Positions 1 through 4,996 of a DNA stretch of 13,233 nucleotides are shown in pieces (position 1 is the first letter of the stretch; each line of letters opens with the position of its first letter). Both the position numbers and the translations under genes were made by a program. The notes beneath the pieces are model-generated. The model ran no database searches and was not told the DNA's origin. It saw only the letters and a list, made by a program, of their open reading frames with translations. The stretch is from positions 1 through 13,233 of the IMG/VR virus record IMGVR_UViG_2695420747_000007. One strand, given 5' to 3'. The DNA comes from a virus. Its lineage: Duplodnaviria > Heunggongvirae > Uroviricota > Caudoviricetes.

Positions 1-115
1 CCCGCCACCAGCACACCGTCAGCCAGCACTGACATTATCCGGCTGCTGCAATGCCATTCACAAAAACAGTAAGCAATCACTTTTTACCGTAACAGGTGAT
101 AATCCAGATATGTAT

Positions 116-469
116 CTACCCCAGATGAGTAATCCGAAGTTCATCCATACCACAGGTCCTGGCTATTCTGTTGTACTCCTGAACAAGAGCAAATAATTCT
201 GAATTAGCCACCATGAACTCATCGCAAACCCTCTGTATAGCATCACTATTCAGAATAATAACGTCTCTTCCCGAAAGACGATCAGGAGTACAGAACAAAA
301 CTGTCAAACGGCTGAAGGCCTTTGCTCGTTCTGCATTGACTATATCAATACGCTGCCTAAGGATGAAACACCCCGACGCCTCATCAATATTCACTCTACC
401 CACACCATATGAATGATAAATATTTAATGCTGAAAAAACCATTAGACGGTATAACAAACACTCAATCAA
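116..469 (-). CDS. Hypothetical AT-rich cargo protein (117 aa, copy 1), downstream of the phage tRNAs in the late-transcript direction
   Basis: Open frame in the six-frame track; co-oriented with Q/pR'. Track start at 469 is TTG; first in-frame ATG is at 442; no convincing SD at either. Stop TAG at 116-118. No family recognised. Confidence 0.35.
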   Translation of the reverse strand: MIECLLYRLMVFSALNIYHSYGVGRVNIDEASGCFILRQRIDIVNAERAKAFSRLTVLFCTPDRLSGRDVIILNSDAIQRVCDEFMVANSELFALVQEYNRIARTCGMDELRITHLG

Positions 470-579: not shown

Positions 580-656
580 TGGCGCGCTGTACTGGATTCG
601 AACCAGTGACCGATTGCTTAGAAGGCAATTGCTCTGTCCGGCTGAGCTAACAACGC
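580..656 (-). tRNA. tRNA-Arg (anticodon UCU), copy 1
   Basis: Reverse complement folds as a cloverleaf: acceptor GCGTTGT/ACAGCGC, D-stem GCTC/GAGC, anticodon stem ATTGC/GCAAT with loop CTTCTAA, T-stem ACTGG/CCAGT with loop TTCGAAT, encoded CCA. Resembles the argU/argO class from memory. Confidence 0.9.
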
Positions 657-767: not shown

Positions 768-843
768 TGGTGGCCCTTGCTGGATTTGAACCAGCGACCT
801 GGCGATTATGAGTCGCTCGCTCTCACCACTGAGCTAAAGGACC
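768..843 (-). tRNA. tRNA-Ile2 (anticodon CAU, ileX/ileZ-like), copy 1
   Basis: Reverse complement GGTCCTTTAGCTCAGTGGTGAGAGCGAGCGACTCATAATCGCCAGGTCGCTGGTTCAAATCCAGCAAGGGCCACCA: anticodon loop CTCATAA, T-loop TTCAAAT, encoded CCA. Near-identical to my recollection of E. coli ileX; CAU could formally also be Met. Confidence 0.85.
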
Positions 844-882: not shown

Positions 883-904
883 AAAAAACCCGCTCGGTGG
901 CGGG
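883..904 (-). terminator. tR'-like intrinsic terminator, copy 1
   Basis: On the minus strand a GC hairpin (CCCGC-loop-GCGGG, plus 889-904) is followed by a T6 run (plus 883-888), placed after the pR'-like promoter. Confidence 0.65.
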
Positions 905-953
905 TTGTAGAAACTCTTCTAACGTCAGGTATAAAAAGCCCATCGTTATGACG

Positions 954-981
954 AATTTACCACAGATTCCGGAAAAATCAA
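954..981 (-). promoter_or_regulatory. Late promoter pR' with qut/pause region, copy 1
   Basis: Minus strand TTGATT-16-TAAATT followed by CGTCATAACGATGGGC. The TAAATT...AACGATGGG arrangement matches the lambda pR'/pause element as I recall it. Confidence 0.6.
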
Positions 982-986
982 CCTTG

Positions 987-1756
987 TTACCTAGTTACCT
1001 TTTTTAACTGCCGCTCAGCCCATGCTTCTTCAATATCAAACCGGGTCACCAGCGCATCATAGAATTTCTTAACTGTTTTTTCCCATGACGCGCGTGTTAT
1101 CTGGTTTGTCACCTCGCATATAGCATTAAATGCCTCCGTTGATGGTAGTCTTTCATAGCCACGACCACCACAACGCTGGCAGTCTCTGATAACAGGCATA
1201 CCACGTTTTACCGACTCTTCACGGTGAATGGCGACACCACGCCCACGGCAATCCTTACAGACGGTGGAAACCTCACCCTTTCCGCCACACTCCGGACAGG
1301 CAACTTTTACCACCTCCCTGACTTTTTTCCATTCTTCCCAGTAAGACGGATACACACCTTTCGTACACTTTGCCCATACCGGCGGCTTACCATCCGGATA
1401 CTGGACCTTGTTTGTAAAAACTACGCTTTCAATAAATTTTTCCCCATAGCAACAAGGGCACTGCTTTTTACTCGCTGCGCTGCGGGCATAATCCTCAAAA
1501 GCGTACGAAGCCATAATGCGCATCACTACCGGTTTTATTTCTGCCGGAAGTTTTCTCAACGCCGCCACACGATCGCACCGACTGAGTGCATAATCTGCCA
1601 GTAATTCTGTTGCCCGCGCCCTGTCATTCATACTGATGCCCATCTTCCCCAGGAACGCAGAAAACCCCATCTCAGCCCGATTCTGTGTCATGCCCTGCGC
1701 GGCCATCACATCAGTGATACTCAGCGCATCTTTTGACGTTGAGGCCGATGCATCGG
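987..1756 (-). CDS. Q-like late antiterminator, copy 1, 5'-truncated by the N gap
   Basis: Paralogous to the 273-aa ORF at 4175-4996. Multiple CxxC zinc-ribbon motifs (CPCC, CPEC, CKDC, CQRC); sits directly upstream of pR'. The frame runs open from 1709 up to the N run at 1757. Confidence 0.7.
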
Positions 1757-1784: not shown

Positions 1785-2141
1785 CTACCCCAGATGAGTA
1801 ATCCGAAGTTCATCCATACCACAGGTCCTGGCTATTCTGTTGTACTCCTGAACAAGAGCAAATAATTCTGAATTAGCCACCATGAACTCATCGCAAACCC
1901 TCTGTATAGCATCACTATTCAGAATAATAACGTCTCTTCCCGAAAGACGATCAGGAGTACAGAACAAAACTGTCAAACGGCTGAAGGCCTTTGCTCGTTC
2001 TGCATTGACTATATCAATACGCTGCCTAAGGATGAAACACCCCGACGCCTCATCAATATTCACTCTACCCACACCATATGAATGATAAATATTTAATGCT
2101 GAAAAAACCATTAGACCGTATAACAAACACTCAATCAACAC
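1785..2141 (-). CDS. Hypothetical AT-rich cargo protein (copy 2 of the 117-aa ORF)
   Basis: Near-identical to 116-469 (one R/G difference near the N-terminus). Track start at 2141 is GTG. Confidence 0.35.
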   Translation of the reverse strand: MLIECLLYGLMVFSALNIYHSYGVGRVNIDEASGCFILRQRIDIVNAERAKAFSRLTVLFCTPDRLSGRDVIILNSDAIQRVCDEFMVANSELFALVQEYNRIARTCGMDELRITHLG

Positions 2142-2248: not shown

Positions 2249-2325
2249 TGGCGCGCTGTACTGGATTCGAACCAGTGACCGATTGCTTAGAAGGCAATTG
2301 CTCTGTCCGGCTGAGCTAACAACGC
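2249..2325 (-). tRNA. tRNA-Arg (anticodon UCU), copy 2
   Basis: Identical sequence to the tRNA at 580-656. Confidence 0.9.
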
Positions 2326-2425: not shown

Positions 2426-2501
2426 TGATGGCCCTTGCTGGATTTGAACCAGCGACCTGGCGATTATGAGTCGCTCGCTCTCACCACTGAGCTAAAGGGC
2501 C
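2426..2501 (-). tRNA. tRNA-Ile2 (anticodon CAU), copy 2, variant 3' end
   Basis: Same cloverleaf as 768-843 but the 3' terminus is encoded as TCA instead of CCA (plus tga at 2426-2428) and acceptor position 3 is C instead of T, turning a G-U pair into G-C. Confidence 0.8.
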
Positions 2502-2550: not shown

Positions 2551-3600
2551 TCAAACGATTAAATCCTGAACTTCCCTGACTGTCTGCTCAAAACGTCCGG
2601 TCTCCAGTTCAACGCCAATCGCACGACGCCCGAGCGCCAGTGCAGCTTTTACCGTTGAACCTGAGCCCATAAAAAAATCTGCAACCAGGTCACCCGGACG
2701 ACTGCTTGCGCTGATTATCTGCTGCAGCATTTCTGCCGGTTTTTCGCACGGATGTTTCCCGGGATAGAACTGCACCGGTTTATGTGTCCACACATCCGTG
2801 TACGGCACCTGCGCCGTCACACCAAAATACCGCCGCAGATGCTTATATTCACTCTGCAGCTCCACATACTGCCGGTTCAGTGACGTATACGTATCCACCA
2901 GCTGGTGGTGGGGCTTTTCCAGTTCACCGCGCTGATGTTTCTCTTCTGCCACCCGGGCAAACAGCGACTGTAATTTCAGATAATCGCTTTCGTTCGGTAG
3001 CTGCCACTGACTGGCACTGAACCAGTGCGACACCATGTTTTTCTTTCCTGTGGCATCTGCAATCTGTTTTGCCGTTATCCCCAGGGCCACGCGCGCATCA
3101 CGAAAGTAAGAAATCAGCGGGGCCATCACATGCTGTTTCAGTGCACTGCCCTTCGCCGCATACCCGGCATCTTTCGGACGATACGGCCCCTGATAATGTT
3201 CCGCGAACAGAATGCGCTCTGTGGCGGGGAAATACGCCCGCAGGCTTTCCTTGTTGCATCCGTTCCAGCGTCCGGACGGCTTCGCCCAGATAATATGGTT
3301 CAGCACACTGAAGCGTTCACGCATCATGATTTCGATATCAGATGCCAGGCGATGACCACAGAACAGGTAAAGACTTCCGACAGGTTTCAGCACCCGCCAG
3401 AACTGCGCCAGACACTGGTCCAGCCACTTCAGGTAATCATCGTCGCCCTTCCACTGGTTATCCCAGCCCTCAGGCTTCACTTTAAAGTACGGCGGGTCCG
3501 TGACTATCAAGTCAACAGAATTTTCGGGTAACGACCGGATAAATTCCAGGCAGTCGACGTTGATTAACTCACAACTGGATATTTTTACAGTGTTAAGCAT
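2551..3600 (-). CDS. Orphan DNA methyltransferase, beta-class (N6-adenine or N4-cytosine), 349 aa
   Basis: N-terminal motif IV DPPY (IVTDPPYF) precedes C-terminal motif I FxGxG (DFFMGSGST), the beta-class permutation. ATG at 3600 with weak SD. No adjacent endonuclease gene. Confidence 0.85.
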   Translation of the reverse strand: MLNTVKISSCELINVDCLEFIRSLPENSVDLIVTDPPYFKVKPEGWDNQWKGDDDYLKWLDQCLAQFWRVLKPVGSLYLFCGHRLASDIEIMMRERFSVLNHIIWAKPSGRWNGCNKESLRAYFPATERILFAEHYQGPYRPKDAGYAAKGSALKQHVMAPLISYFRDARVALGITAKQIADATGKKNMVSHWFSASQWQLPNESDYLKLQSLFARVAEEKHQRGELEKPHHQLVDTYTSLNRQYVELQSEYKHLRRYFGVTAQVPYTDVWTHKPVQFYPGKHPCEKPAEMLQQIISASSRPGDLVADFFMGSGSTVKAALALGRRAIGVELETGRFEQTVREVQDLIV

Positions 3601-4174: not shown

Positions 4175-4996
4175 CTATCGCGTTACCCTCTTTAACTGCC
4201 GCTCCGCCCATGCCTCTTCAATGTCAAACCGAACCACCAACGTATCGTAAAAGCGTTTCACTGATTTTTTCCACGTATCAAGCGTGATAGCACTCGTCAC
4301 TTTGCATATGGCATTAAATGCCTCCGTTGATGGCAGCCTTTCACAGCCACGACCACCACAACGCTGGCAATCTCTGATAACAGGCATACCACGTTTTACC
4401 GACTCTTCACGATGAATGGCGACACCACGCCCACGGCAATCCTTACAGGCGGTGGAAACCTCACCCTTTCCGCCACACTCCGGACAGGCAACTTTTACCA
4501 CCTCCCTGACTTTTTTCCATTCTTCCCAGTAAGACGGATACACGCCTTTTGTGCACTTTGCCCACACTGGTGGCTTACCATCCGGATACTGGATCTTGTT
4601 TGTAAAAACCTCGCTTTCAATAAATTTTTTTCCGTGACAGCAGGGGCACTGTTTTTTGCTCGCCGCGCTACGGGCATAATCTTCAAACGCATACGAAGCC
4701 ATAATGCGCATCACTACCGGTTTTATTTCTGCCGGAAGTTTTCTCAACGCCGCCACACGATCGCACCGACTGAGTGCATAATCTGCCAGTAATTCTGTTG
4801 CCCGCGCCCTGTCATTCATACTGATGCCCATCTTCCCCAGGAACGCAGAAAACCCCATCTCAGCCCGATTCTGTGTCATGCCCTGCGCGGCCATCACATC
4901 AGTGATACTCAGCGCATCTTTTGACGTTGAGGCCGATGCATCGGTCAGGCCAGGGGATTTTGGGGAGTAGTATTTCGGTAAATCTTCCAGTTTCAT
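4175..4996 (-). CDS. Q-like late antiterminator (273 aa), zinc-ribbon type
   Basis: ATG at 4996 overlaps the rusA stop (ATGA). Four CxxC pairs. Position immediately upstream of the lambda-like pR'. Resembles the QuuQ/YdfT class from memory. Confidence 0.8.
   Translation of the reverse strand: MKLEDLPKYYSPKSPGLTDASASTSKDALSITDVMAAQGMTQNRAEMGFSAFLGKMGISMNDRARATELLADYALSRCDRVAALRKLPAEIKPVVMRIMASYAFEDYARSAASKKQCPCCHGKKFIESEVFTNKIQYPDGKPPVWAKCTKGVYPSYWEEWKKVREVVKVACPECGGKGEVSTACKDCRGRGVAIHREESVKRGMPVIRDCQRCGGRGCERLPSTEAFNAICKVTSAITLDTWKKSVKRFYDTLVVRFDIEEAWAERQLKRVTR

Follow-up and report, generated by a model that had tools for sequence, protein, structure and literature searches.

The closest described counterparts of the locus analyzed here are the morons of lambdoid phages, a concept of Juhala et al. 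2000 (as cited in PMC4104026). Two of these, stxAB in 933W/Sp5-type phages and tciA-tciB in JLK-2012, lie in the same slot, from Q and the tRNA genes to the lysis genes, as a small gene in the window, the whole 13,233-nucleotide stretch of DNA that was analyzed. JLK-2012 itself lacks this gene, and its slot holds the tRNAs followed by tciA and tciB; the pR' moron site also carries sRNA genes (Tree et al. 2014, PMC4104026). Judged by gene order, the locus described below, a single-gene module between Q/pR' and the lysis genes, has a moron-like architecture. As in morons, the GC content of the gene lies under that of its neighbours, and terminators flank some of its relatives. In contrast to stxAB-type morons, the cargo in the window's clade is a tiny, predicted helical protein without a link to toxins or the envelope and, unlike phage-slot morons, its family also occurs on plasmids.

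The lambdoid prophage sequence in the window represents the immunity-to-late-control part, read on the minus strand, and its gene content includes a cI-like repressor, YdaT-like, DUF977 and DUF968 genes, RusA and Q. Seven N at 1757-1763 mark a scaffold junction, and the window is thus a scaffold rather than continuous DNA. Left of the gap, the minus strand carries Q, a pR'-like promoter, tR', a tRNA (CAT), a tRNA-Arg (UCU), an ORF at 116-469 and the start of a DUF3927/TciB-like gene; right of the gap lie Q2, a short ORF, an N6/N4 DNA methyltransferase, both tRNAs again and a second copy of the ORF. The features are as follows:

1..35, minus strand: start of the small DUF3927 (TciB-like) gene, the next one downstream, which leaves the window (PGAP in 55989 and B19374; tciB in JLK-2012)
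116..394, minus strand: CDS copy 1, 92 codons, GTG 394-392, TAG 118-116 (dN/dS, start of the relatives, PGAP, open frame, AlphaFold2)
395..469, minus strand: 5' part of the ORF, holding ATG 442-440 and TTG 469-467 (frameshift and stops in relatives)
580..656, minus strand: tRNA-Arg (anticodon UCU), 185 nt upstream of the GTG start (ARAGORN, Rfam)
768..843, minus strand: tRNA with CAT anticodon, tRNA-Ile (Ile2 type) in RefSeq/PGAP (ARAGORN, Rfam, PGAP)
887..906, minus strand: tR'-like intrinsic terminator, 7-bp stem then U-run (hairpin plus U-run)
954..981, minus strand: pR'-like late promoter, TTGATT-16-TAAATT, just downstream of Q (read from the sequence)
987..1756, minus strand: Q antiterminator of prophage 1 (Pfam Antiterm, 1.6e-54), 5' end lost at the N run
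1785..2063, minus strand: CDS copy 2, same sequence as copy 1, in the second prophage region (contig ends 21 nt past the stop)
2249..2325, minus strand: tRNA-Arg (UCU), copy 2
2429..2501, minus strand: tRNA (CAT), copy 2
2551..3600, minus strand: N6/N4 DNA methyltransferase, between Q2 and the copy 2 tRNAs (Pfam N6_N4_Mtase, 2.1e-44)
4175-4996, minus strand: Q2 (Pfam Antiterm)

The N run starts 21 nt past the stop codon of copy 2 and truncates the Q gene at 987-1756 at its 5' end, the Q frame being open up to the N. The pR'-like site at 981-954, which we take to resemble lambda pR', scores under the threshold of the promoter scanner. Positions 95-882 are repeated, near-identically, at 1764-2540. 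An earlier note on this DNA had listed the ORF at 116-469 on the minus strand and a second copy at 1785-2141, and both were found, with 117 codons from a TTG and 118 codons, respectively. The copies are identical over 95-447, and in the ORF region they differ only at 448 and 471. A local duplication of the ORF was ruled out, as the copies belong to two different prophage regions; with the N run being a scaffold junction, the 1.67-kb spacing between them is a product of assembly.

That the ORF sits in the moron/toxin slot of Stx phages, as previously proposed, was borne out by the complete genome B19374 (L112), which is 100% identical to copy 2. Here the order is Q, a 65-aa gene, methyltransferase, tRNA-Ile, tRNA-Arg, the ORF, DUF3927, iraM (opposite strand), a SASA esterase (nanS-p-like) and a holin, which is the Stx2-phage layout with this gene replacing stxAB. 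The family was found behind four unrelated Q families (PF03589, PF06323, PF06530, DUF1133), and members precede holins in E. coli, in a Citrobacter genome and in a Salmonella assembly. The L096 and L098 lineages show the order ORF, TerB-like, DUF3927, holin, whereas the window's clade has no TerB-like gene. Similarity between clades at the DNA level extends over about 471-162, which is hardly more than the ORF. In L098 and L091, intrinsic terminators lie on both sides of the gene, and L096 has one after it; in the window, a terminator was looked for after the stop codon and none was found. Promoter-like sites upstream of the gene (e.g. TTGAAA-16-AAAAAT, 514-487) are no commoner than in shuffled sequence. 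The region had also been described as visibly AT-rich. Its GC content is indeed lower than that of the neighbours, but only moderately so (ORF 44%, GC3 42%; Q, methylase, RusA and DUF968 50-54%), while the upstream spacer has about 35% GC and the relatives of the ORF 34-43%.

STnc100 (RF02076) sRNA copies, up to four in tandem, were observed downstream of the ORF in related loci (L001 4693-4883; L009 5352-5547 and 5612-5718; L103 2559-2771 and 4530-5509, the last with four tandem copies), and in 55989 one copy lies about 120-300 nt past the window's left end. Their proximity to the ORF fits the sRNA genes known from the pR' moron site (PMC4104026).

The limits of the ORF differ from those of the gene, as the comparative data put the start at GTG 394-392, giving a product of 92 aa. 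The remaining part, 395-469, is noncoding by these comparisons and probably a 5' leader: clade 2 (L009) has a frameshift and a stop in it, and L102 has a stop 10 codons upstream of the start. Frame disruption among relatives, which had been suggested as a sign against the ORF, is thus present in the 5' extension and absent from the 92-codon core. Contrary to the earlier statement that there is no canonical ATG, an in-frame ATG is found at 442-440, though without a Shine-Dalgarno sequence. Many gene callers choose it, resulting in a 108-aa version; residues 1-14 of this version are disordered in the AlphaFold model (pLDDT <50), and the first 16 residues of the 108-aa GenBank/PHROG form are probably untranslated. 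The 92-aa start is the one used by PGAP in the WP_001017777.1 clade (51 genomes). In L096 a GGAG lies 5 nt ahead of the GTG, and distant members of the family have an ATG plus Shine-Dalgarno sequence at the homologous start position. The GTG of the window's clade is preceded by GGTG (406-403, 8 nt) and GGG (401-399, 4 nt), a weak ribosome-binding site.

Comparison of three E. coli clades (window, L009 and L096/L102) indicates that 116-394 is a real gene maintained by selection and not a remnant. Amino-acid identity to the window is 57-62% for L009 and 64% for L096/L102 (WP_001017777.1), and the Nei-Gojobori omega for the clade pairs is 0.27, 0.20-0.24 and 0.27-0.32 at dS 0.9-1.2. Differences fall on the three codon positions as 24/21/43 and 19/20/44, the third position collecting about twice as many as each of the first two. 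The minus frame is without stops in all seven lineages, whereas every other frame is stopped in at least five of the seven. Polymorphism within the window's near-identical clade (82 sequences, 23 haplotypes) points in the same direction: segregating sites make up 2.9% of the CDS at 116-394, compared with 6.7% of 395-469, 10.8% upstream and 6.2% downstream, and the CDS polymorphisms (5 synonymous, 4 non-synonymous) show an excess at third codon positions. In all 54 evenly sampled E. coli genomes of this clade, the match is exactly 279 nt long.

In L003-L008 of clade 2 (e.g. L003 3762-4990 and 5001-5360), an IS3-family element with HTH_Tnp_1 and rve ORFs lies directly upstream of the core. Its insertion gives the protein P0017 a chimeric N-terminus, with the 92-codon core intact from VDIDEK onward.

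The earlier note recognized nothing like this protein, but its sequence is already deposited, both as a hypothetical protein and as a PHROG of unknown function; accordingly, we regard the gene as a late-region moron and not as a new type of system. The 117-aa ORF matches many deposited hypothetical proteins as well as phrog_2873 (E 1.7e-70, residues 10-117 on profile positions 1-108), and the 92-aa form matches phrog_2873 over all 92 residues (E 2.5e-58, profile 17-108). All nine aligned relatives match phrog_2873 as well. A second profile, phrog_4827, is matched at E 1.2e-5, and by distant members at 2.5e-16; both PHROGs carry the label 'unknown function'. RefSeq WP_001017777.1 (E. coli) and WP_079938455.1 (Citrobacter freundii complex) share length, start and prophage place with the window gene, while the GenBank and PHROG models use the 108-aa ATG form as opposed to the 92-aa GTG form proposed here. 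None of these two proteins and two PHROGs has a described function, and a literature search for WP_001017777 found no mention of it. Neither candidate ORF scored above noise against Pfam, NCBIfam or PADLOC.

Only 20 hits came from a first profile search, which covered 1.84 billion representative proteins, and no longer relative of which the ORF could be a fragment was among them. Five of the relatives (P0027, P0028, P0029, P0031 and P0034) are full-length, with 91-95 aa and 32-42% identity, and align from the VNIDE start; relatives at 32-44% identity come from E. coli, a Citrobacter genome, a Salmonella assembly and metagenome contigs and have the same start. The second profile search gave 31 hits, none of them fused to another domain or containing a Pfam domain, and added P0080 (Salmonella enterica assembly) and P0079 (E. 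coli, plasmid contigs). Hits with a named organism were only from Escherichia, Shigella, Citrobacter and Salmonella, and a search for related loci with a 5-sequence alignment yielded three species representatives. We excluded P0033 (106 aa, 22% identity, E 2e-6), encoded ahead of Mu-type baseplate genes, since its coiled-coil match was doubtful.

Within E. coli the gene is widespread, being present in 1312 of 5426 complete genomes (24%), in 1185 of them at 95% identity or more; the window's clade is the commonest form, and the carriers include environmental and animal isolates. By comparison, tblastn of 50,697 phage records gave a single match, mEp460_ev081, and most copies may therefore sit in defective prophages. 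In RefSeq, all 54 rows sampled from the window's clade lack an annotated feature at this place, with a PGAP gap of about 500-540 nt from DUF3927 to tRNA-Arg in every sampled genome of the clade (L001 5036-5579, L112 3487-3985), whereas the 64%-identical clade (WP_001017777.1) does get a PGAP annotation. The omission may be due to the weak ribosome-binding site together with atypical composition. The neighbouring DUF3927 gene is called at 28, 43 or 50 aa, depending on the genome.

P0079 (91 aa, 34% identity; L108-L110 8001-8276; H146-H155) is encoded on E. coli plasmid contigs with Rep3 and ParA/SopB, where it adjoins a PapB-regulated, K88-like chaperone-usher fimbrial operon; in its sister lineage P0029 (L093), a tRNA-Thr is located about 580 nt upstream. 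Its presence on plasmids means that the gene has moved outside prophages and, since the plasmid members adjoin a fimbrial operon, that it is not tied to phage lysis.

The 92-aa product has a mass of 10.5 kDa and is acidic (pI 5.3). As read from the sequence, its hydrophobic stretches are all too short for a signal peptide or a membrane span, so the protein is probably cytoplasmic. AlphaFold2, run with nine aligned relatives (pLDDT 88.3, pTM 0.75), predicts an antiparallel two-helix hairpin with helices at residues 3-33 and 50-81 and a loop holding a conserved T-P-D-R; R23, P37, N64, Y74 and N75 are invariant across the family. At the codons of the conserved loop, inside the CDS, the minus strand contains a hairpin (CGTCTTTCGGGAAGAGACG) that, with the T-rich stretch after it, resembles a terminator (262-280); it is probably incidental, as several of its positions differ in clade 2.

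Foldseek against BFVD gave no match at E of 0.001 or better, and among solved-structure families there was no match beyond weak profile or shape resemblance. Prefoldin beta (1FXK_A) and other antiparallel coiled-coil hairpins (ROP-like bundles, the ESCRT-III/Vipp1 hairpin) are alike in shape only and support no functional inference. Prefoldin beta (helix - beta-hairpin - helix) shares 2% sequence identity with the protein, a Pfam prefoldin match is lacking, and hundreds of unrelated hairpins score nearly as high. The best hits of a PDB sequence-profile search pointed to GapR (UPF0335/DUF2312), an alphaproteobacterial DNA-clamping nucleoid protein, as a weak match over helix 1 plus the loop (E 0.04-0.2). 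Homology to GapR/DUF2312 (PF10073) was rejected after a DUF2312 alignment and hhalign, which gave 6% probability, and no member of the family has a DUF2312 Pfam hit. GapR is basic, unlike the acidic protein of the window.

Taken together, it is highly probable that 116-394 and 1785-2063 represent a genuine gene of a small stx-slot family encoding a hairpin protein, for which we infer late transcription and partner binding. Given where it lies and how lambdoid late operons are known to work, the gene would be transcribed behind the two phage tRNAs, as part of the late transcript that starts at pR' and is antiterminated by Q. AUA and AGA/AGG, the codon types decoded by these tRNAs, account for 8 of its 92 codons, that is, 8.7 AGA+AGG+AUA per 100 codons versus 0.6-3.8 in neighbouring genes. 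A functional tie to the tRNAs was considered and rejected, the shared slot being the better explanation, as the tRNAs lie 0.1-2.3 kb off or are absent, depending on the lineage. The acidic hairpin, with conserved polar residues all along it, might, on the predicted model, bind a partner or self-associate, and would seem somewhat less suited to an enzyme, a toxin or a DNA binder. The most likely reading is that of a late-transcribed accessory (moron) protein acting through partner binding.

Several other readings of the locus were weighed against this one. The RefSeq/PGAP blank in all sampled genomes of the clade, the weak Shine-Dalgarno sequence and GTG start, and the AT-richness of a region that behaves like a 540-nt 'intergenic' gap would all suit a chance open frame or the decayed remnant of a larger gene from which no protein is made, and the earlier note had indeed considered a leaderless or decayed gene. 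Such a reading is improbable, given a GTG start that is conserved in three clades, an omega of 0.20-0.32 at dS of about 1 across them, homologues at 32-44% identity that keep length and start, CDS polymorphism below that of the flanks and enriched at third positions, a confident AlphaFold model with the deepened alignment, and the lack of a longer relative in the profile searches. Alternatively, the functional gene might be the plus-strand ORF at 213-416 (67 aa), also raised previously, with the minus frame as its shadow. This ORF has an ATG, has no stop in either the window or the L096/L102 clade and shows an equally low apparent omega (0.22). As the two frames share third codon positions, omega cannot separate them; stop counts did, with 2-7 stops in five of the seven lineages for the plus-strand frame versus none for the minus frame. 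Moreover, L009 has a GTG for the ATG plus an internal stop, the translation is rich in Arg and Ser, which is what an antisense reading would give, and it has no PHROG, Pfam or NCBIfam match. With its frame broken in this way rather than conserved, we give the plus-strand ORF next to no weight.

The position of the gene raises the question of whether it encodes a Stx-like toxin or other virulence cargo released at prophage induction: it occupies the exact stx position, after the same tRNA types and before a nanS-p-like esterase, and its ORF has the AT-richness and the abundance of rare codons that are ascribed to stx. The product is hard to reconcile with such a role, being a 10.5-kDa acidic, all-helical hairpin by prediction and not a RIP N-glycosidase A subunit or B-subunit fold, with no signal peptide or membrane-span stretch, no N-terminal hydrophobic segment, no Pfam, PADLOC or NCBIfam match and no toxin-specific fold match. 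As the gene is also found in 24% of complete E. coli genomes, environmental and animal isolates included, we consider a toxin very unlikely. The same low probability applies to a conserved RNA in place of a protein, either an sRNA or a leader that regulates the late transcript in cis. Although sRNAs are known at moron sites 3' of pR' (PMC4104026) and STnc100 lies near related loci, Rfam 15 at E up to 1 matched only the tRNAs and nothing within 1-579, folding of 100-480 was not significant (z = -1.4), and the substitutions are codon-periodic, with the protein still conserved at 32% identity, a distance at which the DNA can no longer be aligned. A further, unlikely reading sees a small effector, not recognized before, that takes the place of stx in non-toxigenic lambdoid prophages and binds and modulates a host or competitor protein in the late phase or in the lysogen. 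As possible variants, it could be a partner of the TerB-like/DUF3927 (TciA/TciB) module, or a protector of the adjacent tRNAs of the phage against defence nucleases or tRNA-targeting colicins. If an effector were indeed encoded, a fitness benefit would explain the presence of the gene in about a quarter of complete E. coli genomes.

For the preferred reading, a late-transcribed moron protein acting through a partner, the new element is the gene model itself (116-394, GTG, 92 aa), whose commonest clade is unannotated in every sampled RefSeq genome. Its value for annotation is that RefSeq misses the commonest form of a small gene which is under selection and which some 1,300 of the 5,426 complete E. 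coli genomes carry, and that the start used in GenBank/PHROG is probably wrong (108 aa instead of 92). The gene adds one more conserved cargo gene to the best-known lambdoid virulence slot and provides a defined target for screens of prophage accessory genes, with a mass of 10.5 kDa, a confident model, the TPDR loop and a Y-N motif. The understanding of these phages is unchanged by it, as hypothetical morons are common in the slot and nothing here points to a toxin.

Minor differences were observed between the two tRNA regions. A homopolymer of 16 C (plus strand) lies at 691-706, between the tRNA genes of copy 1, where copy 2 and E. coli 55989 have 5 C; the tract is either hypervariable or a sequencing or assembly artefact. 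The CAT tRNA copies (768-843 and 2429-2501) differ at their ends. Copy 1 has an encoded 3' CCA (GGGCCACCA) and a G-U wobble at acceptor pair 3-70 (GGTCC...), while copy 2 has a G-C pair (GGCCC...) and reads ...GGGCCATCA, without an encoded CCA, which accounts for the ARAGORN lengths of 76 nt for copy 1 and 73 nt for copy 2.
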